Positions 2 through 36,956 of a stretch of 36,958 bases of DNA are shown piece after piece. Position 1 is the first letter of the stretch; every line of letters starts with the position of its first letter. The notes beneath the pieces were generated by a model. That model was not told the DNA's origin, did no database searches, and saw nothing but the letters and a program-made list of their open reading frames with translations. The position numbers and the translations under genes are program-made. Source of the DNA: a virus (Duplodnaviria > Heunggongvirae > Uroviricota > Caudoviricetes). Where the stretch lies: IMG/VR virus record IMGVR_UViG_3300033463_000046; one strand, written 5' to 3'.

Positions 2-577
2 CTTAATAAGTTTAGAGTCTATAGTTGTAAAACTATTTTCCTTAACACGAGGATAATTGCTCAAAGTGCTCAGCACAGTCCTATTTATGGATATTATCTT
101 GGTAAAAAAGAAAATCTTGAGCAATGGAGAATATATTTCCCACAAAGAAAAGACTTTAGATTTTTAGGAAATGTTTCAAGTAAGACCATTCAAGGTTTTA
201 AGCAACTTCCCAAAAAGGGAAAACTCTTAGTAATAACTAAATCTATGAAAGATGTAATGTGTTTATATTCACTAGGTATTACGGCAATAGCTCCGAATAG
301 TGAAACTCAATTTGTGGATGATAAAACCTTAGAAAATCTCAAAGAACGATTTGAGAATATTGTATTGTTATATGATAATGATCTAACTGGGGTAAGATTT
401 GCTAATAAAATAAGAAAGCAACATCCAGAGTTGAAAGTTGCTATAATTCCGCGAAGCACAGGATCTAAAGATATTAGTGATTATTATAGAGATCATGGTA
501 GAGAAAAGACATTACAGTTTATTAAGGATTCTGCTAAAGTATTAATTAATAAATATGAAAAAGTAGGCAAACACTAA
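2..577 (+). CDS. DNA primase, TOPRIM domain (5'-truncated by window edge)
   Basis: Frame is open from nt 2 to TAA at 575-577 (the track only started it at Met 245). TOPRIM motifs: LVITKSMKDVMCL and LLYDNDLTG; C-terminal KDISDY. Confidence 0.85.
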   Translation, partial: LNKFRVYSCKTIFLNTRIIAQSAQHSPIYGYYLGKKENLEQWRIYFPQRKDFRFLGNVSSKTIQGFKQLPKKGKLLVITKSMKDVMCLYSLGITAIAPNSETQFVDDKTLENLKERFENIVLLYDNDLTGVRFANKIRKQHPELKVAIIPRSTGSKDISDYYRDHGREKTLQFIKDSAKVLINKYEKVGKH

Positions 578-1100
578 AGTAACAGCTTTTTACAAAGATG
601 GTACAACCTGCACCTTTGAGACAATTGAAGCTGCTTCAGAGATGACTGGTTTAGCTGTCACATCAATTAAAGCACGAGCAAATAGACCAGGTTCTGGTGC
701 TAAATCCAAGGATGGAATTACTTTTGAATGGGCTGATCCAGCAGTTAAGCGTAGTAAAACAGCCTCTAAGAGTAAGAAGAAAGGTAATGCATTTGAACTT
801 GAAGTTATTCATAAGTTAAGAGAAATAGGCTATGCTGGAAGCGTATCCAGTAGAAGTCAAGATAAACGTGCAGATGCTAATAAAATTGACGTTGTAGATA
901 TGGATGGTGAGTTACCTGTAAATGTGCAATGTAAGTATACTCAGAACTTGCCAAATTATTTTGACATTAGAGATGCTTGTACAGATAAGGATAAACCATT
1001 CTGTCTTATTTGGAAGAAAGCTGGAAAGGATGGAGAGCAGAGTAGAGGTACTGTGGCTGTCATTCCTGTTGAATACTTTTATCAATTAATCGCAAAATGA
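555..1100 (+). CDS. Holliday junction resolvase-like PD-(D/E)xK nuclease with N-terminal NUMOD1-like HTH; in-frame TAG at codon 4 (564-566)
   Basis: ATG 555 (A at -3, AT-rich context) is in frame with ATG 642: MKK*ANTKVTAFYKDGTTCTFETIEAASEMTGLAVTSIKARAN. The C-terminal half has KKKGNAFELEV...IDVVD...VQCK, typical of Hjc-like resolvases. The standard-code ORF is 642..1100. Confidence 0.7.
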
Positions 1101-4006: not shown

Positions 4007-4588
4007 ATGAATTTTCCCGAAATATCAACTGATAGAGTATTTTCACAAATACCAAAAGGGAGCGTTGAAGCAATGTCTGATTTCATGTGGAGTGATGCTC
4101 TATGGAATCAAGGTAATTGTAGAATTGACCTGAAACGTAAAGTAGGTTCTGGTTTCGTAGACGTTCTTCTTAGATATTATAATGAATTGGGAGATAAATA
4201 TATATGGATGTTAGGAGAGTATAAGCAAAAGTATGATCAAGAAATGCAGGCTATAGCTCAACTCCTAATGTACCTCGGAAATTTCTTCTATGATACTAAT
4301 ATAGAAGGAATAGATAATTTAGCTAATGTGTTTGTCGCATCCGGTGAGCATTTTAGGCTAATAAGAAGAGAGAAGTTATTTGGGATAATGGAAAAGTTTG
4401 AGTATATTTGGAGAAAGCACTTTAGGGTAAGTCCTAACACTGCTTATGAAGTGCCAGAGATACGAGAATTTGTTCAACAATATTCCCAAGAACTGTTAGA
4501 AGACAGTTTATTAGTAATGAGATCCGAGAATAATATAAGATTAGACGAATTAATCAAAAGTATTTATAAGGAATGGAACTTACAGTAG
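4007..4588 (+). CDS. restriction-endonuclease-fold (PD-(D/E)xK-like) protein
   Basis: GFVDVLL...LGEYK...AIAQLLMYL resembles the D...ExK...QLxxY signature. Ends in TAG; read-through would stop at TAA 4619-4621. Confidence 0.5.
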   Translation: MNFPEISTDRVFSQIPKGSVEAMSDFMWSDALWNQGNCRIDLKRKVGSGFVDVLLRYYNELGDKYIWMLGEYKQKYDQEMQAIAQLLMYLGNFFYDTNIEGIDNLANVFVASGEHFRLIRREKLFGIMEKFEYIWRKHFRVSPNTAYEVPEIREFVQQYSQELLEDSLLVMRSENNIRLDELIKSIYKEWNLQ

Positions 4589-5340
4589 ACCAATTACTAC
4601 AAGGTAAAGCTACTAAGATAAAGGAGAAAGAGTTCTTCACGACAAAAGCGTATGTCGAACCATTCTTTGATAGGATGTCAAAGTATACTGAAGAATTTAT
4701 AATCAATGTAAAGCCTGCAGATCAAATATCTCTTACTCCTAGTGGGGAGGTAAACTTTGATGATATAGTTTATAATAGAGTATGGATTCAGGCCGTATTG
4801 CCCGATGAATATGCGTATGAAAATCATAAGAGAGTAATGAGTATGATTTATGCTCTGGATACTCGCAAGCCAGTAGTTAAGATGTATACAGGAGCATTAA
4901 ACATGGCTTGTTTAAACTTATGTGTGTTTAATCCTGATGCCTTAAATGTAGCTGAACTTGAGCCAACTACTGCTATTAATTTTAGTCCAGTAAATCTCTT
5001 AATGGGAATGACAGACACTATCAAAGTAACTCTTGAAAAGATGTCTAAGAAAATCTATACTAGAGACAGTATTTATGAAGAGTTAGGTCTTTGGATAGAT
5101 AGAAGTATTACTGCTAAATATAATAGTGGATTTGGTATTGTCAAGATTGCTGAGTCAGGTCCGATTAATGTATATAAGAGTCTTTTCTATGATGAAGAGT
5201 CTAGTTATTATACTAGGGGAGAAGAGGTTGATGGATTCACAGTCTATAATGCCTTTACTGACCTGATTACCCAAGATAAGAAAGATCTTGTCAATAAGTT
5301 TGAGAAGACTCTTCTTGTAAAGGAAATCATGGATATTTAA
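4573..5340 (+). CDS. DUF932-like conserved crAss-like phage protein
   Basis: 255 aa; GALNMACLNLCVF segment and TVYNAFTDLIT C-terminus recall DUF932-type proteins of crAss-like phages (recognition from memory). Confidence 0.5.
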   Translation: MELTVDQLLQGKATKIKEKEFFTTKAYVEPFFDRMSKYTEEFIINVKPADQISLTPSGEVNFDDIVYNRVWIQAVLPDEYAYENHKRVMSMIYALDTRKPVVKMYTGALNMACLNLCVFNPDALNVAELEPTTAINFSPVNLLMGMTDTIKVTLEKMSKKIYTRDSIYEELGLWIDRSITAKYNSGFGIVKIAESGPINVYKSLFYDEESSYYTRGEEVDGFTVYNAFTDLITQDKKDLVNKFEKTLLVKEIMDI

Positions 5341-6500
5341 TGCCACGAAGACTTACTACTGAAGAGTTTATCGAAAAAGCGCGAGCCGTTCATGGAGATA
5401 TATATGATTATTCTAAGGTTGAATATATAAATAATCAAACTAAAGTTTGCATAATATGTCCTGTTCATGGAGAGTTCTGGCAAACACCTGGTAATCATTT
5501 ACACGGTTATGGATGTAATCAATGCGCTATAGAAAAGCGTAAGACTTCTTCTACAGGAAAACGTTCTACTGCAGAAGAATTTATTAAGAAAGCTATAGAA
5601 GTTCATGGTAACAAATATGATTATTCTAAAGTAAATTATATAAATAGAAAAACTGATGTTTGTATAATATGTCCAGAACATGGAGAATTTTGGCAACAAC
5701 CTTCTCATCATTTACAAGGATCTATTTGTCCTAAGTGTGCAGATTTAGGTAGAAAAGAAAAATTAACACTTACTAATGATGATGTTATTGAAAGACTTCA
5801 GAAAGTTAGAGGCGATAGATATGATTATTCTAAAGTAAAGTATACTGGATGGAATGATCCTATTGTAATTACATGTAAAGAACATGGAGATTTCGTTACA
5901 ACAGCTTCAAATGCTTTAGACCGTAGAACTATTGAAATTTGTCCATATTGTTGTGATACTGCTCATATTATAAATACAGAACATTTTATATTTAGAGCTA
6001 AACAAGTTCATGGTAATATATATGATTACTCTAAAGTTAAATATGGTAAAACTAATGATAAAGTATGTATAGTTTGTTCAAAACATGGAGAGTTTTGGCA
6101 GTCACCAAATGACCATCTTCAAGGTAAAGGTTGTTTGAAATGTGGTTACGAAAAAAGTTTAAACATATCTGTTTCCAAAGGAGAAATTGAAATTATGAAT
6201 ATACTTAATAAACATAATATTGAGTATATGACACAAATTCCAATAAAATCCTCAATTAATTATACAGGATGGATGTATATAGACTTTTATATACCTTCCA
6301 TGAATACCATTATAGAATATAATGGTCAACAACATTATACTGCTGTTAAAGGTATGGGCGGAGAATTAAGATTTGAAAAACAACAGGCTCGTGATGAAGA
6401 ACTTCGTCAATATTGTAAAGACAACAGTATTAGACTTATTGAGATAAGATATGACGAAGATGTTTGGGAAAAACTCAACAATGAAATCATATGCAAGTAA
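5340..6500 (+). mobile_element. free-standing homing-endonuclease-like gene: four zinc-ribbon repeats plus C-terminal Vsr/DUF559-like PD-(D/E)xK nuclease
   Basis: Four copies of F...A..VHG..YDYSKV.Y....KV.I.C..HGEF.Q....HL.G..C..C, then IDFYIPSMNTIIEYNGQQHY...RDEELRQYCKDNSIRLIEIRY. Sits directly upstream of nrdD. Confidence 0.75.
5364..6150 (+). repeat. four intragenic ~200-213 bp degenerate tandem repeats
   Basis: TATGATTA(T/C)TCTAA at 5403, 5616, 5820, 6021; CATGGAGA(G/A/T)TT at about 5466, 5679, 5883, 6084. Confidence 0.85.
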
Positions 6501-12803: not shown

Positions 12804-14038
12804 ATTCCGACGTTAAGGTATTAGTATCAAGAGACGCAAAAGGTAAGATACGAGTAGCAGAAATATCATACGATGGTAATGAAGCTACTCGTATTTATAC
12901 TATATATAGGTATACAGGTCAATATGAAGGCAAAATGACTCGACAACCTGACATATATGTTGATAGAGGTAAAGCTACTCGTAATATACATGAACAAGTA
13001 GAACTTCAATTCAATGCACTTGTTAAAGGTTATCGAGATAAAGGTTATATCGAATTAGAAAAAGAACTTGATGATTACAGTACTGAAGAGTTACATTCAC
13101 TGTTTGGTGACGCTCCTACTGGTTCCAATGGAGTTGTTAAACCAATGCTCGCAAAGCAGGCAGACAAAGTAACTAATACTAAGATATTTGATAAAACATG
13201 GGTAGCATCTCGGAAGATTGATGGACTTCGTTGTCTAATATTTATGGACGATAAAGGAGAACTTCATACAGCTTCCAGAGGTGGTTCTATTAATTACGAT
13301 GTTGGTATGTTCCAAATTCTTAATCATCCTATACTTATTAAAGTATTTAAGGAAATGAAAGAGAAATATCCTAATTTTATGCTAGATGGAGAAGCTTATC
13401 ATCATGGTTACACTCTTCAACAATTAAATTCATATGCTCGTAGTGTAAAGACTGCTAAGGATATGGATGTTCTTCAATTCTATTGGTATGATATAGTTGA
13501 CCAAAGTCGAATATTCATGGATAGAATGAGAATAATGGATATATTTGCTTCTAAATTAGATGTTGCTGGAGCACCAACTGTTTGGGAACCAGATAAGACA
13601 TTTAAAGATGGAGAACTCAGAATACAAAGAGTTCCTCAAGTTTATGTATCTGGTTGGGATAATATGATGAAACTTCACAACGAATATGTTTCAGAAGGTT
13701 GGGAAGGATTAGTTATTAGAGACCCTGAGAGACCTTATAAACCTAATGGTCGTACTAATGATATGATTAAAATTAAAGTTTATAAGGATGATTGCTTTAA
13801 AGTTGTAGGTAAAGAAGCAGGTCTTCGCGGAAGTGAAGATATGGTCTTTATTATGCAAATGCCAGATGGTAGAACATTTAAAGCAAAGCCATTCGGAGAT
13901 AGAGAGCAAAAACAAGAATATTGGATTAACTTTGAAGAGAAATATAATGGTCATATAGGAGAATGTAAGTTCTTCTATTATAGTGATGATGGTATTCCTC
14001 TTCAACCAGCATTTAAAGCATTTAGGGATGACTTATAG
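12800..14038 (+). CDS. ATP-dependent DNA ligase with N-terminal extension
   Basis: Motif I RKIDGLRC, LDGEAY, YWYD, EGWEGLVIR, MIKIK, OB-fold tail ending GIPLQP. Ends in TAG; TAA follows 2 codons later. Confidence 0.9.
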   Translation: MNSDVKVLVSRDAKGKIRVAEISYDGNEATRIYTIYRYTGQYEGKMTRQPDIYVDRGKATRNIHEQVELQFNALVKGYRDKGYIELEKELDDYSTEELHSLFGDAPTGSNGVVKPMLAKQADKVTNTKIFDKTWVASRKIDGLRCLIFMDDKGELHTASRGGSINYDVGMFQILNHPILIKVFKEMKEKYPNFMLDGEAYHHGYTLQQLNSYARSVKTAKDMDVLQFYWYDIVDQSRIFMDRMRIMDIFASKLDVAGAPTVWEPDKTFKDGELRIQRVPQVYVSGWDNMMKLHNEYVSEGWEGLVIRDPERPYKPNGRTNDMIKIKVYKDDCFKVVGKEAGLRGSEDMVFIMQMPDGRTFKAKPFGDREQKQEYWINFEEKYNGHIGECKFFYYSDDGIPLQPAFKAFRDDL

Positions 14039-14222
14039 AGTTAATGTAGACCAAGTAGTACGTTACATGGTTACATATGAATTTCAAACAGAAGATGATC
14101 CACAAGAAGTATTAGAAGATATGATTGCTCGTGGTGATTATTCTGAATTAGAAGAGATAGATGCGGACGAAATAGAAATTCGTGATTTTGATATTTTAAA
14201 TATTGAAGAAGTCGATGACTGA
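14028..14222 (+). CDS. small acidic protein (paralog 1 of 'GDY' trio)
   Basis: ATG 14028 preferred over 13983: MTYRVNV...ARGDYSELEE... Confidence 0.75.
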   Translation: MTYRVNVDQVVRYMVTYEFQTEDDPQEVLEDMIARGDYSELEEIDADEIEIRDFDILNIEEVDD

Positions 14223-14355
14223 ACAAGAAGTAATTCGGAAAAGAGAAGCGGCTTATGAAAAAGCTGTTAATGCTCTTATAGAATTGGTTAATGCGATAAC
14301 CAATGAAAGAGATTTCTATAAGAATAAATGTGAAAATGATATTCGAGGATTATGA
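14215..14355 (+). CDS. small helical protein (46 aa), missed by ORF track
   Basis: MTEQEVIRKREAAYEKAVNALIELVNAITNERDFYKNKCENDIRGL; fills the gap, ATGA overlap with next gene. Confidence 0.65.
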   Translation: MTEQEVIRKREAAYEKAVNALIELVNAITNERDFYKNKCENDIRGL

Positions 14356-15023: not shown

Positions 15024-15144
15024 TTGCTATCATTGTGGATACTTCCGTGAGGAGGAAAGACCTGACGGGAGTATCCGTAACTATTGTAATGATAGAGATT
15101 GTACAGTAGACCCTTATGAACCGGACTGCAATGACGAAGGCTGA
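15013..15144 (+). CDS. small Cys-rich putative metal-binding protein (43 aa), missed by ORF track
   Basis: MRTNCYHCGYFREEERPDGSIRNYCNDRDCTVDPYEPDCNDEG; CxxC plus three more Cys; fills the gap. Confidence 0.6.
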   Translation: MRTNCYHCGYFREEERPDGSIRNYCNDRDCTVDPYEPDCNDEG

Positions 15145-19292: not shown

Positions 19293-19559
19293 ATGGAAAA
19301 AGAAGTTTTTGATAGACTTTTAAAAGAGTTTACTGAAGTAAACGAGAAGGCTAATAAGCTAAAAGATTTTATCTTAGATGAAGAGAAAATTAAGGCCGTA
19401 GATAACCTTAACAAAGATTTACTAATCGCACAGTTAAAGGCTATGGAGGCTTATCTTTCTATACTATCTATCCGCATTGGATTAAATGCTCCTCGTGAGA
19501 TGGTTGACGCTGTTAAACCTAAAGAAGAGCCTGCTGAAGAGGTAAAGGAAGGTGAGTAA
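19293..19559 (+). CDS. crAss001_48-like helical hairpin protein
   Basis: RL..E..E..EK..KL.DFI...L...DLLIAQLKAMEAYLSILSIRI pattern recalled from that family; ATG 19293 preferred over the TTG at 19269. Confidence 0.6.
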   Translation: MEKEVFDRLLKEFTEVNEKANKLKDFILDEEKIKAVDNLNKDLLIAQLKAMEAYLSILSIRIGLNAPREMVDAVKPKEEPAEEVKEGE

Positions 19560-20397
19560 GAAAGTAATTTTCACTGATAGGTCAAATGAACTATTAAATA
19601 GCTATCTCAAGGATATTTCTAAATATAAGATTTTAGAAGGTCCTGAGATAGCTAAACTTGTTTTAGAAGCACATGAAGGTAATGAAAGGTCTAAGAATAA
19701 GGTAGTTCAATCCAATCTTAGATTTGTAGTCACAATTGCCAAACAATTTCAACATCGTGGGATAGATCTAATGGATCTAATCGCAGCCGGTAATGAAGGA
19801 CTTATTAAAGCTGTAGATAAATTTGACCCTAGCAGAGGAGTTACTTTTCTCTCTTATGCTGTATGGTGGATTAAACAAGCCATATATAAAACTATCTATT
19901 GGAACGGAAGAGAAATCCGACTTCCAATGTCTCAGCAACTTCTTGTAAATCGTATTCTAGAAGCCACTAATCAATTCTTACAAAAGAATAATCGTAATCC
20001 TAGTTCCGAAGAAATTTCGGATATGACAGGAATACCTCGTGAACAAATTGATTATCTTGCTCAATTCTCTAATAAACTTGTCTCTGTTGATGATTTTATA
20101 GGAGGAGACGAAGATAATAGTCAAGTTTGTGATATAATCCCAGACGGTGAGCCTCCTCTTGAAGATGAGGTAAATAAGAAATATGTTGCAGAAGAAATTC
20201 AACATTATCTAGGTAAACTAACAATTAGGGAACATGATATATTAATGATGTATTTCGGATTTGGAATGGAACCTATTCCTCCAAGAACAATAGCTGCAAT
20301 GTATGGTGTAGGAACAGAAAGAATACGACAAATTAAGGAAGGAGCTTTAAATAAATTAGAACGTAGATTTGGTAATAAATTAAAAATGTTATGGTAG
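19552..20397 (+). CDS. sigma70-family RNA polymerase sigma factor (RpoD/RpoH-like, no region 1.1)
   Basis: Region 1.2 SYLKDI; region 2 NLRFVVTIAKQF...DLIAAGNEGLIKAVDKFDPSRG..FLSYAVWWIKQAI; region 4 HTH GVGTERIRQIKEGALNKL. Ends in TAG; TAA follows at 20404-20406. Confidence 0.92.
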   Translation: MSKKVIFTDRSNELLNSYLKDISKYKILEGPEIAKLVLEAHEGNERSKNKVVQSNLRFVVTIAKQFQHRGIDLMDLIAAGNEGLIKAVDKFDPSRGVTFLSYAVWWIKQAIYKTIYWNGREIRLPMSQQLLVNRILEATNQFLQKNNRNPSSEEISDMTGIPREQIDYLAQFSNKLVSVDDFIGGDEDNSQVCDIIPDGEPPLEDEVNKKYVAEEIQHYLGKLTIREHDILMMYFGFGMEPIPPRTIAAMYGVGTERIRQIKEGALNKLERRFGNKLKMLW

Positions 20398-20990
20398 ACA
20401 ACATAAGTACAATTAGAAGTACTCTAGAATTTGATAATCCTGAGGAATTCTATTATATTTCAATTATGCAAAGAAATAAAGATGGTGTAAAAGTTGCTAG
20501 TTCTCACGACAATGCTCGGAGAATCCGAACTTTTTATGTCTTCTCACTTGAGGATTTTGATAAGATTACAGATTTCATTAGAGAAATTTGTGACAAAATT
20601 AATGCTCGTTGCTACATAGAATTAAATAGGAAGAATATTTTTCAGTGTCAACTAGAGTGTATAAAGAGACTTGCAGAATGTATAGAACATCGTACAACTA
20701 AGTCTCGTGCCATTATGGATTCAGTAGTAGCAGGTGCACCGTCTAGAGATAAACTCTGGATGATTGATGCTGATGATACTAGTCCTAGTAGTGATTTAAT
20801 TGAACATATCCTTCAAGATGTAGAGGATAGAAAAGGAAAACATTATGCTGTCATTCCTACCGTAAATGGTACACATATTATAACAAGTAGATTTGATCCA
20901 CGTGAGTGGCCATATGAAAATGCTGAGATAAAAAGAAACGCATTTACTCTACTTTACTATAATGATGAAACACTACATAGTAACTTATGA
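20391..20990 (+). CDS. putative AEP (primase-polymerase) superfamily protein
   Basis: WMIDADD (hhDhD) and IPTVNGTHII (S/TxxGxH-like) motifs. Confidence 0.45.
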   Translation: MVDNISTIRSTLEFDNPEEFYYISIMQRNKDGVKVASSHDNARRIRTFYVFSLEDFDKITDFIREICDKINARCYIELNRKNIFQCQLECIKRLAECIEHRTTKSRAIMDSVVAGAPSRDKLWMIDADDTSPSSDLIEHILQDVEDRKGKHYAVIPTVNGTHIITSRFDPREWPYENAEIKRNAFTLLYYNDETLHSNL

Positions 20991-23920: not shown

Positions 23921-24038
23921 AATCGATATTAACCCTCTCTTAGAAACTGAGAGGTTAGAAGATTTTGTAAATAATTATCTGGTACCATTTATGCAACAAT
24001 TGCAGGTACCGGTTATTAAAGTGAATATCAATGAGTAA
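23859..24038 (+). CDS. small hypothetical protein (59 aa), missed by ORF track
   Basis: MILDMQGNPVQDSAPSIKRIEIDINPLLETERLEDFVNNYLVPFMQQLQVPVIKVNINE; fills the gap, overlaps the PNK start. Confidence 0.55.
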   Translation: MILDMQGNPVQDSAPSIKRIEIDINPLLETERLEDFVNNYLVPFMQQLQVPVIKVNINE

Positions 24039-30808: not shown

Positions 30809-30849
30809 AAAGGCGGCTCGGGGAGAAATCCTCGGGTCGCCTTTTTTTT
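30809..30849. terminator. bidirectional Rho-independent terminator between convergent early and late blocks
   Basis: Stem AGGCGGCTCGGGGA / TCCTCGGGTCGCCT, GAAA loop, T-run on + strand and AAATTAAA (T-rich on - strand) upstream. Confidence 0.9.
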
Positions 30850-30855
30850 ACTCCG

Positions 30856-33800
30856 TTATTGGGTGTCTCGTACATACATCCTGTAAGTATCTCGGAATGC
30901 CCTGGTAAATGCTTGAGCACCCATGGTAGTGCCCATTAGGGTTTGGTCACCTGTTGCTAACTTATATAAATCGTTAAACATCTTCGTTGGAAGTTTGTAG
31001 GTGGCCGGGTTTGTTGAATTTCCTATATAATCAAGAACTGAGAATGGTCCAAAGAAGTTGTCCCAAGAATTATGCCAACCTTTGTAGGTAAGTTCAGTTA
31101 GAGCATTACTAACAATATTCTTACCATTAGCATTCTTCTTGTGTTCAGCATATGCTGGATCTAATGCTAACTTGAAGATAGCTCCATATAGTAACATCAT
31201 AAATATGTCAGAAAATAACTTGTTAAAGTTTCTTCTGTTTATATCATTATGTTTATATGAAACATCTACAGCTTCTTTTAATCCATTATTTACCCATTCT
31301 TTCGCGAATTGAACAACAGTATTGATAATACCTTGAACTTCTAATGGAACGTCTTTCATTACAGGAACACCTGTATCAACTTCAGTTGTAGTTCCATCAG
31401 GCGCAAAGAATAATGGTTTACCATTATCATCAGTTTCTTGAACTTCTTTAATTTCACTTTGAGATATTTGTCTCTTCTTAGCATAATTATCTACGATACC
31501 GTTCATCCAAGTAGAGAATATACCAAAGTTTCTACCGATAATAGTATGCTCATATTTAGCACGAGTACTTTGGTTATATGAACCATAAATATTATCAGAG
31601 AAGTGTTTGAAAGCAGCAATTTGTTGTTCAGTATATGCATCAGGCAAAGCATCACCTTCTACAAAAGGTTTACCCTGCTCATTGAGACGCCCTTCTTTAT
31701 TAAATTGTCTTAGTAAAGATAGATATTTAGAACGCTACTTATTATATTCTTCTGGATTATTTTGGAAACCATTTGGATCATTATAAACATTAAAACGTTT
31801 ATCCTTTTTCCAGTCATATATCAATTGTCCATCCTTGATATAATAAGCATCCTCAACGCCGTCATGATGCATACGAGCAGAGAATAATACCATTCTATTA
31901 AGATAGTCAGGAGCTCTTAAAGTAAAATATGCCATACTATCAGCATTAAGAACACCACTACCACTAGTCTTCAAACCTTCAGATATACGAGCAACATCAA
32001 GGTTAGAGAATCTATACTTAAGATTAAGCTGATTCAACTTAGATATTGTCATGACATTTTGAGGTCCTTCTAAGACTACTTGAGCATAACCATGTGCCAC
32101 ATCAGAAGGAGTTATATCTGTTTGGAATTTAACTAAACTTCGAACCATATTCTACTTAAGACCTTCAGATATATCACGAACCATAGCTACAGGGTTGGCA
32201 GCGATATAACAAACTGATACAGCTCTTCTAATAGGATCAAGAACATTTTCAATTTTCTTAGAAGTATCTTCCATAATAGATTTGTTATACACACTTACTG
32301 CCAAATAATCATTAATGGTTTTAACCGTATGTTCTATTCCTTTTGGATCATCTTCTGCAATTCCTCTCATTTGTAGATCCAGTAAGATGCCTTTAGTACG
32401 AGTAAGCATTTTATTGAATTCTACCGATTGAATATGTTTTTCCATAAAGTCAATCATGAGAGTTTCTACGTCAGTTTCAAAGTAATCAACACCATTTTTA
32501 TCAATATAATTCTGACGTAAGTTACTAGACATTTCTGACTTTAAGAATGGATTATAAGCTTGGAGGCGTTGAATGTCGTTGTCTCTTTGAATCTTTTCTT
32601 CCTCATTGAGAACACCTTCACTAAATTCTAAGAAAGTCTCTTTAGGGTGACGAATTATACCTTGCCATCTTCTTCCGAAGTCTTTCCAAGTTTTTCCAAC
32701 ATTTTCTCTGCGAGTTGCCTTAGAAGCTTTTCTAAGAGGAACATTTAAGTAATTTAATTCTCCATTATTTACTTTTTCGATGAGACCTTTATCATTAACT
32801 CCAGTATATTCCCATGTCATACCTTTCATTTCATGACGAATCTTGTTCATTTCATAAAGAATATCCTTTAAGAAATCTCTTTCATAATCTTCTAAATCAA
32901 CACTCATATCATAGGGATTTTTAAAGCGGAGAGTTTTTTCTCCATTCAAATCTCTTTCATATAAATTATCAAATTGAGCAGCGTGATTACCCACCAAGCT
33001 ATTCTCAGCAGCACTATATCCTTTCTTTTCTAAGAAGTTAAGAATCTTAGTTCTAATAGGTGAATATCTTTCAAGCATTTGGCTAGATATTTTATCAATA
33101 GAACGTTGGAACATAAAAGCTACTGTACGAACGTTGGTATTTGGAATAGATTGAGGCTTAGCAAAATATTCAGACATTTGACTAAAATACTCATTGTCAA
33201 GAGATAAGTCTCCACTGTACATATTTAGTGCTCTAAGAGCATTAATAAGAATACGTGCAGTTGTAGCTCTTTGAATACGTGTAGTATCTTTAGAATAATC
33301 AATAAGTTGCTGTATGTTAGCATTACCTATAACAGCATCATAACTTTTAATCATTTCAATTAACTGTTGTAATTTATTGATTTTTCCTTCAATAGTATCC
33401 ACGGTTTCAAGACCATCAACAAATGTTCCATCTACTGCAGTAGAACCCGTCATAATATTATTAAATGTGGCTTGAATATCCTTTGTATTCTCTGGATAAT
33501 CAGTAACAGCTTCTCTCCAAGTATCGACCACAATTTTAATTGGATCTATAGTTTTAATATTGTTCTTTTTAAAGTTATTTTCAAAATCTAACATTGAGTT
33601 ATTTTCCTTAACAACTTTAACTACAGTTTCAAACTATGGTAGTAATTGAGAAATCATAATATCACGTCCAGTCTTTCTGTGATATTTAGATAAGCTAACA
33701 ATTTTTAGTTGTCCGAGTTCTACATTTCCGAGAGAACCTACAACTTCATTAAGAAGAGTCATAGTACGGATAGCCTCTATATTACCATAGTTACTTTCCA

Positions 33801-35442
33801 TTATAAAGTTATGACTATTCATATCAGAGAGATAATATCCTAATATGTTATCACGACCTTTAACTTTACTCTTTAAATCAACTTCAAATGGTGTAAGAGA
33901 TACAACATCAAGTTGATTAGTTGTTTTATTGCGGAACATCAATACATTAGCATTGAAAAGAGTTTGGTTATCGATTAATTCCCACTTATATTCTGTAACA
34001 TGACCATCTTCATCCAAACCATTATTTTCATGGAAATACTTACCAAGTTGTCTTTCAAGTACACCATTTATTTCAGAATTACTTGACGTAGATAAGAAAT
34101 TGTGTTTATCTTTATAAGATTTTTTAATATCACTAACAATACGATAAGTAGTTTTAGCTCTTGCGGTATTACCGAATAAAGATTCTTCGCGGTCTCTTAC
34201 TAAACCTACAACAGTTTCGTTATCAACACCTACTCTAGTATCTTCTACATAAATAGGCTCTTTTTCACCGGGTAGTTTAATATTCCAACCCTTCTTATCA
34301 ACAGCCTGAGTTGCTATCTGTTTCCAGTTAGCTTGAACCCAACCCTTAGCAGACTCTCTAATACCTTCAGCAGCGATATCTTTATCTCTTCCTGGGAAGA
34401 TTTTATGAAGTTGCTCATTAACCTTAATTAAAGAAGAATCATTAATATCCGAAACTTCTATATTAGAGTCAATAAACTGAGAAGCAACATTATCATATCT
34501 TTGGAAGATATATTGAGAATTCTTAGTATCATATGAAACGTATCTTTGGGGTAAAACCCTTATCACATTTTCATATTTATCATCATATGTGATTTGAACA
34601 GGTACAAGATTTAAACGAATATCTCTTGCACTTATTCCATTATATTCAAGAATTTTCTTAATTAAAGCAAGTTGATACTTGAATTTCTCTTTCTTAGTAG
34701 CATCCCATTGAGACTCAGCTTCTGTAGATACTTTAAGATTGAAGATTTCAATATCACCATCAGGTTTTACAAATAAATAATCGATGTGACCAACAATAGT
34801 TTCAACTAGATTCTTAAGTTTGGCCTCTATATTGATATTACGAATTAGAGTAGAATCCTTTTGTCTATCCCATATATTTTTCATAATAGAGTCTACTGTA
34901 GGCCTTAATTGATCAGATACTTTCTAAAAAGACGTATTAAGAGAAGCTCCCATAAAGTATCTTTCAGTATCATCTGAGCTTGCAGATACTAATATTCTAT
35001 GAAGATCAGAAGCATCTTTAGCAATTCTTTCCCAATTAGCTAGAATTTGATTAACCTTAAAGGTTGCATCTTCCTCACTCATTTTCTCAACTTTCATATA
35101 GTACTCCTTCTTCCTCTTAGCATAGTCTTCCTTATTCATTCGGAACATGTCATAGTTACCGTCTACACTAAAATGAGCAGAGTCTATAAAGGTTTGACTA
35201 GTATATTTACCATCTTCTACTTTTATATCAGTATCATCATCAACAATACTTGACTATTTAGTAAAACCATAATTCTTCTTTAATTTTTCTATCTTATCCT
35301 TCATTGTAGCTTGTCTATTCTCTAAGTCCTTACTAAATAGAAGAGACAAAGCCTAAGAAAGTCCCTTATGTTTAGCTAAATCTTCCAATAGCTCATCATA
35401 AGATTTATATATTTTATCATTAAAACTATATTTACAAGGCAT
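30856..35442 (-). CDS. giant (1528 aa) putative virion-packaged/ejected protein with degenerate PD-(D/E)xK-like domain; six in-frame TAG codons
   Basis: Single frame from ATG 35442 (MPCKYSFNDK) to TAA 30858-30856. The only stops are TAG at 35353, 35254, 34924, 33634, 32152, 31735; junctions were translated by hand and are all in frame. Motif VGHIDYLFVKPDGDIEIFNLK...YQLAL. Confidence 0.8.
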
Positions 35443-35444
35443 TT

Positions 35445-36956
35445 TTAACAATCAAATTCGGTTAACGCTCTACTATCTATAAGTTCTTTAACAAGCTATG
35501 ATAATTTCATGTTCTTATCCATAGCCTTCATAACATCAGAATCAGCCATTAATGTTTGTACTAATCCTTGGAAATCTAAAGAATCATTGGGATTGGCATG
35601 AATAATGCTGTCAAAATCTTCTTGAATTTGAGTAAACATATCATTAAACTCATCGTCAAAATCAGTCCCATTAAATCCACTAACTAATGAACCTTTCTTG
35701 AACATATTCTGAGCCATAATACTTACTACAACTTCTTCTATCTTATCTTGTTTGGAAAAACCTCTATAAGCATCATCAACGCTTCCCATCATATTCAAAT
35801 ATCTATCAGTATATTTATCCTTAAAGTAGTCAATTAAATGATTATAAGCCTCAGGATTTGTAGCCTTTATTACTCCTAAGAATATGTGACCCATTTCATG
35901 GAACATATCAGATACATTAGCTTTAGCTCCATTGATATAAATTTTACCATCAAGAACAAATGCTCTGGTATCTTTTCCGAGTTTAAATCCTGGATGAGTT
36001 TTAGCATATTCTTCAACAAACTGATCAAGCTCTTCCTTAGAAAGAACATTTACATCAACTCCATATTTCTTATTAAAATACTCGGCAGCTGTATGCATAT
36101 CAGCCATTGTAGGATATATCTTATCAGGATTATTATACATTTCAATTACATTACCATCATTTTCTAAACGACGTAAGTAAGCAAAGTTACTCTAATCCTT
36201 ACTTTTACGAATAAACCTTTCTACTAAATAATGCTTAGGTTTAGCAGAATTAATCACATCAATAATTCCGTGAGCTAAATCAATATTTTTCTTAATTAAT
36301 GTTTTAAAGTCTCTCTCATTATCCTTCTTATTTTCAGCAAACTTCTTATTGATTTCATCGAAAAACTTAAACATAAAGATTGCCGCTTTCTCTGGGGTAT
36401 TTATTTCTTTAATACGTGGTATGGCGGAGAAATATTCTCTAAATGTAGGTAGGTTTCCATTAAGTAACATCTTCATAAATGAAGGCATACTATTTACCTA
36501 TATACTAGGAAGAGTTACATCCAAAGAAGTAATGATTTGACCAGTCCTTACATCTTTTAAGTTAAGTACAGAAGTACGAGGATCGTCTTTATATTGCTTG
36601 AGAATATACAAACTATTATCAAGAATAGAATGTGTCTCATTCCATTGGTTTATTTTGTTCTTAGCATCTTCTAAAGATGTATAAATAGAACTAGTTGAAT
36701 TTGGAGAAATTAAATGTCTTGATATAGCATATTCAGTTTGAGCGGTACGTGGATTATAATATTCGAAAATATATACTCCGTTATACATTCCATCTTCGTC
36801 AAAGTCAGCAGTATCGGTATTCTCTACTTTTTTTACTGGAGACCATATTGACAAATTATCATATGCATAATCGTGGAATCCTCCTAGTATTGACCAGGGA
36901 AATTTAAAAGTGATTACCTTGTTCTCCTGTTTAGTAACAATAGCAGCAGGTTCTGT
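35445..36956 (-). CDS. large putative virion protein with zincin-like HExxH motif (5'-truncated); three in-frame TAG codons
   Basis: Open from window end to TAA 35447-35445 apart from TAG at 36498, 36192, 35496. Motif IYING...MFHEMGHIF. Its stop lies 2 nt before the next ATG. Confidence 0.8.

Follow-up and report, generated by a model that had tools for sequence, protein, structure and literature searches.

Among crAss-like phages of groups Beta, Delta and Zeta, TAG is read as glutamine in the late genes (code 15; Yutin et al. 2021, PMC7886860; Borges et al., 10.1101/2021.08.26.457843), and this code has been validated by proteomics for two crAss-like phages from the human gut (Peters et al. 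2022, PMC9523058). Zeta phages, for which the name Echekviridae has been proposed, have genomes of 145-192 kilobases (kb) with many transfer RNA (tRNA) genes, and TAG stops with a nearby backup TAA have been described in them (Babkin et al. 2025, PMC12386605). In phage phi14:2, the virion contains the RNA polymerase and two neighbouring proteins, all of which are transcribed late; gp65, which adjoins the polymerase, has a zincin domain, and crAss-like virion RNA polymerases have DxDxD as their catalytic motif (10.1101/2020.03.07.982082). Here we describe a stretch of 36,958 nucleotides (the window) from the virus record IMGVR_UViG_3300033463_000046 (Caudoviricetes), in which two adjacent minus-strand genes, designated A and B, carry in-frame TAG codons. 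We conclude with high confidence that the window belongs to a large crAss-like phage, probably of the Zeta group, and that in its late, virion-packaged genes TAG serves as a third codon for glutamine (translation table 15). The restriction of this recoding to late genes of some crAss-like phages, stated in an initial annotation of the window, is indeed reported in the literature (PMC7886860). The recoding is an already published and experimentally validated strategy, to which the window adds a new cattle-gut lineage. The features of the recoded region are as follows.

35445 to 36956, minus strand: gene A (P0002), the final 503 codons of a gene that encodes about 911 amino acids and is cut by the window end, with three TAG codons read as glutamine.
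30856 to 35442, minus strand: gene B (P0001), 1,528 amino acids under table 15, with TAG read as glutamine at codons 30, 63, 173, 603, 1097 and 1236.
30809 to 30844, no strand assigned: terminator-like hairpin of 16 pairs between the converging plus- and minus-strand blocks.

In-frame TAG codons in genes A and B

When only TAA and TGA are taken as stops, the minus strand reads as a gene A frame of 504 codons including the stop (36956-35445, open at the window end) and a gene B frame of 1,529 codons from ATG including the stop (35442-30856). Across the 36956-30856 reading, the nine in-frame stops are all TAG, with zero TAA or TGA: three in gene A (first base on the minus strand at 36500, 36194 and 35498) and six in gene B (35355, 35256, 34926, 33636, 32154 and 31737). 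The chance that nine random nonsense point mutations would all be TAG is about 1e-5, and each of the other frames across 30856-36956 holds at least 95 stops. Both genes terminate in TAA and are spaced by 2 nucleotides. These readings agree with the initial annotation, which had also counted eight fragments and two giant genes. Nine TAGs give 11 pieces, eight of which reach at least 100 codons; gene A is no giant (911-916 amino acids in the relatives L005-L008), and the giant gene, of 3,600-3,700 amino acids, lies upstream of gene A in relatives, beyond the window. The contexts flanking the TAGs are varied (three read directly, the rest consistent with the translations).

The 53 genes of the plus-strand block end in TGA (31), TAA (19) or TAG (3), bearing out the remark that TGA is a common stop there. 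This block has one internal TAG per approximately 10,200 codons, compared with nine per approximately 2,030 codons in genes A and B, much the contrast first noted. The hairpin at 30809-30844 marks the border of the TAG-free and TAG-using blocks, and the sign of the guanine-cytosine (GC) skew flips there too. The initial proposal is supported: genes A and B use TAG as a sense codon, and almost all plus-strand genes lack it. Three gaps between the listed plus-strand genes (14223-14351, 15024-15115 and 23921-24030) probably hold small open reading frames (ORFs) of fewer than 60 amino acids.

Homologues of gene B include 107 of 1,500-1,560 amino acids. Most of the closer loci with DNA available have TAG in gene B, up to 51 per gene, while four relatives at 41-45% identity (L102, L154, L104 and L106) encode gene B as a single TAG-free ORF; in L102 the counterpart of gene A is likewise one TAG-free ORF, 34% identical over its whole length. 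Thus, homologues are not split at the TAG positions, an outcome that the initial annotation had named as refuting its proposal. Assembly error, a second such outcome, was checked against contigs only; runs X1 and X2 represent one bovine gut metagenome sample that is probably the source. The X2 contigs match the whole stretch with zero differences, but stronger evidence comes from an independent strain at 97% identity (L088), which has five of the nine window TAGs in common. Because close strains share several TAGs and the TAG-free relatives are unsplit, the TAGs reflect neither errors nor split genes. In two other runs, the sequence seems to be shifted by one base at 36195-36198, at a TAG site in diverged strains. 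The RNA runs had too small a share for use. Reassignment of TGA was also considered and rejected, as there are zero TGA codons in the window genes and, among the loci with DNA, TGA occurs inside gene B of one distant locus only.

Codon evidence for glutamine

The initial annotation had left the amino acid open. A protein-level tally of residues opposite TAG showed glutamine, but was set aside as circular because the database homologues had been translated with TAG as glutamine. The non-circular test compares codons in five strains of 82-97% identity (the window, L088, L089, L005 and L006, with gene B TAG counts of 6, 11, 13, 19 and 12, respectively), counting a column if at least one strain has TAG. 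In the 51 TAG-holding columns, 132 of 174 partner codons encode glutamine and 12 of 174 glutamate; 38 of the 51 columns have glutamine partners only, and none has TAG in all five strains. L089, a strain at 93% identity, lacks TAG at eight window sites, with CAA or CAG at seven of them and GAA at one. On this codon test, the residue encoded by TAG is glutamine. TAG exchanges mostly with CAA, which is two changes off (113 cases), over CAG, which is one change off (19 cases).

The same balance is seen over longer distances. Among near-complete gene B copies down to 45% identity, the total of TAG, CAA and CAG stays at 62-77 while TAG makes up a share of the glutamine codons that varies between 0 and 0.72; the glutamate total is 89-107 throughout. 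When gene B is set against TAG-free genomes, glutamine lies opposite TAG columns in 26%, CAA columns in 29% and GAA columns in 8%; GAG columns differ sharply from TAG columns, with glutamate in 205 of 250. In the homologues of plus-strand genes from relatives, 126,647 codons include 4,165 CAA or CAG and 37 TAG, and 35 of these 37 belong to homologues of a single probable homing endonuclease. As judged from these codon comparisons, TAG is interchangeable with CAA and CAG in genes A and B, and the replication and metabolism genes on the plus strand avoid it. In late genes, each TAG site is by itself a neutral synonymous codon, and such sites turn over freely. In the window's lineage, gene B makes low and unstable use of TAG, which accounts for 9% of the glutamine codons in the window's copy, the lowest share among the closest 40 loci bar one TAG-free locus. 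The window's own copy of the probable homing endonuclease (5340-6500, plus strand), with repeated zinc-binding-like motifs, is TAG-free and sits upstream of an anaerobic ribonucleotide reductase-like gene.

Gene setting and a possible code switch

In the closest relatives, the 3,600-3,700-amino-acid gene is followed by gene A and then gene B, the series converging on a deoxynucleoside monophosphate (dNMP) kinase gene as it does in the window. The large upstream gene contains a DYDID motif, of the DxDxD form, both in L007 and in L005, whose gene B is 93% identical. By synteny, gene B is the last of three large genes of the virion RNA polymerase block, and it probably encodes a virion cargo protein. 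Genes A and B gave no significant match in PHROGs, Pfam or PDB sequence searches, and no similarity of gene B to annotated proteins of cultured phages was found. The following motif and fold were recognized within them.

35886 to 35900, minus strand: zincin-type HExxH motif, reading HEMGH (P0002 residues 353-357), kept in L005 and L102.
34453 to 35205 (approximate), minus strand: N-terminal PD-(D/E)XK-like nuclease fold of RecB/AddA/Cas4/Exo5 type in gene B.

A confident model was obtained for the first 345 residues of gene B (predicted local distance difference test, pLDDT, 85; predicted template modelling score, pTM, 0.79); it resembles Cas4-like, Exo5 and AdnA nuclease folds with Foldseek E-values of 4e-5 to 8e-4 and low template modelling (TM) scores. 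PF12705 is matched by 5 of 52 gene B homologues, and the TAG at codon 173 falls within the nuclease-like domain. Because Asn235 appears to replace the second catalytic acid expected from the family consensus, nuclease activity is doubtful and the domain may be inactive; on a probable ejected cargo protein, this fold is possibly a DNA-binding, inactive nuclease domain.

The plus-strand genes work under both codes because they are TAG-free or have a TAG backed by a nearby TAA, as at three gene ends in the window.

4586 to 4621, plus strand: end of a TAG-ended gene, with a backup TAA 10 sense codons on; likewise in L172 and L173.
14036 to 14044, plus strand: end of a DNA ligase gene, reading TAG, one sense codon, TAA.
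20395 to 20406, plus strand: end of a sigma-70-like gene, reading TAG, two sense codons, TAA.

Early in infection, host release factor 1 (RF1) would terminate at UAG, so that only TAG-free genes would yield protein. A phage tRNA with a CUA anticodon, charged with glutamine, would then accumulate and outcompete RF1, after which full-length cargo could be made and packaged: gene A with its zincin motif, gene B with its nuclease fold, and the upstream RNA polymerase. A CUA tRNA whose first pair is U1:A72 is encoded by each of the two related genomes examined, and one of the two has the stem U1:A72, G2:C71, G3:C70, which we take to be the tRNA-Gln identity set. A CUA suppressor tRNA is found in only about 40% of code 15 phage genomes. 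The tRNA arrays of L170 (G002 150-167 kb) and L168 contain, besides the CUA tRNA, tRNAs with unusual anticodons: His AUG, Tyr AUA and two whose loops are irregular. The sigma-70-like factor of the window (19552-20397, plus strand), with regions 2, 3 and 4, is a candidate for regulating middle or late transcription.

Several observations weigh against this reading of TAG as a late glutamine codon. Codon 30 of gene B, a TAG, lies opposite GAG in L005 and GAA in L089, and the comparison of gene A with TAG-free genomes is tied (glutamine 17%, glutamate 17%). Genes A and B are called 'late' on the basis of their synteny with the block of the virion RNA polymerase. A tRNA search of the window found no tRNA gene, in line with the initial annotation, nor is there a synthetase or release factor in it; and the relatives bearing the CUA tRNA are only 39-50% identical at the protein level. 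Codon 30, the tie in gene A and the column of codon 1097, which is mostly glutamate in distant relatives, would suit TAG as a sense codon for glutamate or another residue. We find this hardly credible given the 132 to 12 ratio in close strains, the fact that the glutamine total offsets TAG while the glutamate total does not, and the different behavior of GAG columns. The lack of a suppressor gene in the window would fit a host that itself reads UAG as glutamine, with no code switch during infection. However, such a host would leave unexplained both the near-absence of TAG in the plus-strand codons of relatives and the CUA tRNA in related genomes, and standard-code hosts are predicted for such phages (Borges et al., 10.1101/2021.08.26.457843), making this alternative very unlikely.

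The small number of TAGs in the window would be compatible with leaky, context-dependent read-through, as at so low a TAG share some of the protein could reach full length even if read-through were partial. As first argued, the varied contexts favor reassignment over leakiness, and the sites also move between strains. With up to 51 TAGs in gene B of relatives, a 10% yield of full-length protein would need read-through above about 95% at each site, a point in favor of true reassignment. The unsplit TAG-free relatives, the X2 contigs and the TAGs shared with L088 count against pseudogenes, gene splitting and assembly error, and we see scarcely any chance that leakiness or one of these accounts for the TAGs. 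Reassignment to glutamine is retained.

The start-proximal TAG of a putative nuclease gene and comparison with known systems

The sole internal TAG of the plus-strand block is codon 4 (564-566) of a gene near the window start.

555 to 1100, plus strand: 181-amino-acid gene (P0110) with a small helix-turn-helix domain and an Hjc-like PD-(D/E)XK nuclease.

Hjc entries are the top matches, below significance (profile E 0.095, fold E 0.035), and the Hjc likeness in sequence and model is weak but consistent. The 181-amino-acid reading is matched over its full length by homologues. Of the full-length copies, 61 are distinct (38-97% identity, with many close strains among them), and 58 of these have TAG at codon 3-6, while their later glutamine codons are CAA or CAG in 352 cases and TAG in three; one copy has CAA at the position of the early TAG. 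In four genomes with a TAG-free gene B, there is no stop within the matched part of the nuclease gene. One recoded genome, G007 (L226), with 21 TAGs in the matched gene B parts, also has a nuclease gene without the early TAG. Its close relative G006 (L224) has a TAG-free gene B, and the pair should be useful for studying a recent code change. Overlap with the end of the primase gene was considered as the sole cause of the codon-4 TAG: by rough overlap calls, 41 of 51 classifiable early TAGs lie inside the overlap and 10 outside, so this was rejected in part only and the overlap remains a confounder. We lean, by a narrow measure, towards a lineage that uses TAG in two ways, as a drifting late glutamine codon and as a selected start-proximal gate that would hold back the nuclease until the suppressor tRNA is active. 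Our literature search found no paper describing such a gate.

For annotation, the consequence is that table 11 turns two real genes into 11 fragments and truncates another. Genes A and B add a lineage from the cattle gut and confirm glutamine by a non-circular test, with no new principle. The contrast between drifting late TAGs and a fixed nuclease TAG matters more than the recoding itself, because it separates the neutral spread of a reassigned codon from its regulatory use; if the gate is true, a regulatory role of recoding, hitherto a hypothesis, becomes testable by a single codon change.

The polymerase I gene of the window has its best named-phage matches in IAS virus, cr116_1, cr111_1 and crAss001 at 40-47%. 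It lies in the plus-strand replication block, opposite in strand to genes A and B, where a Toprim domain is also present. Complete related genomes measure 176-192 kb, and two other relatives have 23-30 tRNA matches. A Zeta-group placement is probable and fits the polymerase together with the genome size and tRNA richness of relatives. Points of resemblance to the proposed Echekviridae are the relatives' genome size, a family A polymerase, large tRNA arrays, a CUA tRNA and TAG stops backed by nearby TAA; Babkin et al. mention neither a resolvase gene nor a start-proximal TAG that is conserved (PMC12386605). Some Zeta phages have frameshifted polymerase-block genes, whereas those of the closest relatives here are intact under table 15. 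With phi14:2 g065-g067 (10.1101/2020.03.07.982082), the locus shares three large adjacent genes, one with DxDxD and one neighbour with a zincin motif, a likeness by synteny and motifs only, as no sequence similarity of gene B was found. Compared with the phages of Peters et al. (PMC9523058), the codon, the amino acid and the use in structural proteins are the same. Like code 15 phages of groups Beta, Delta and Zeta, the window phage recodes TAG only, to glutamine, in a late block beside a replication block in the standard code, with TAG-free relatives nearby and a CUA tRNA in related genomes. It differs from them in belonging to a ruminant lineage in which TAG makes up 9-30% of gene B glutamine codons, as against 54-72% in several relatives at approximately 47-50% identity.

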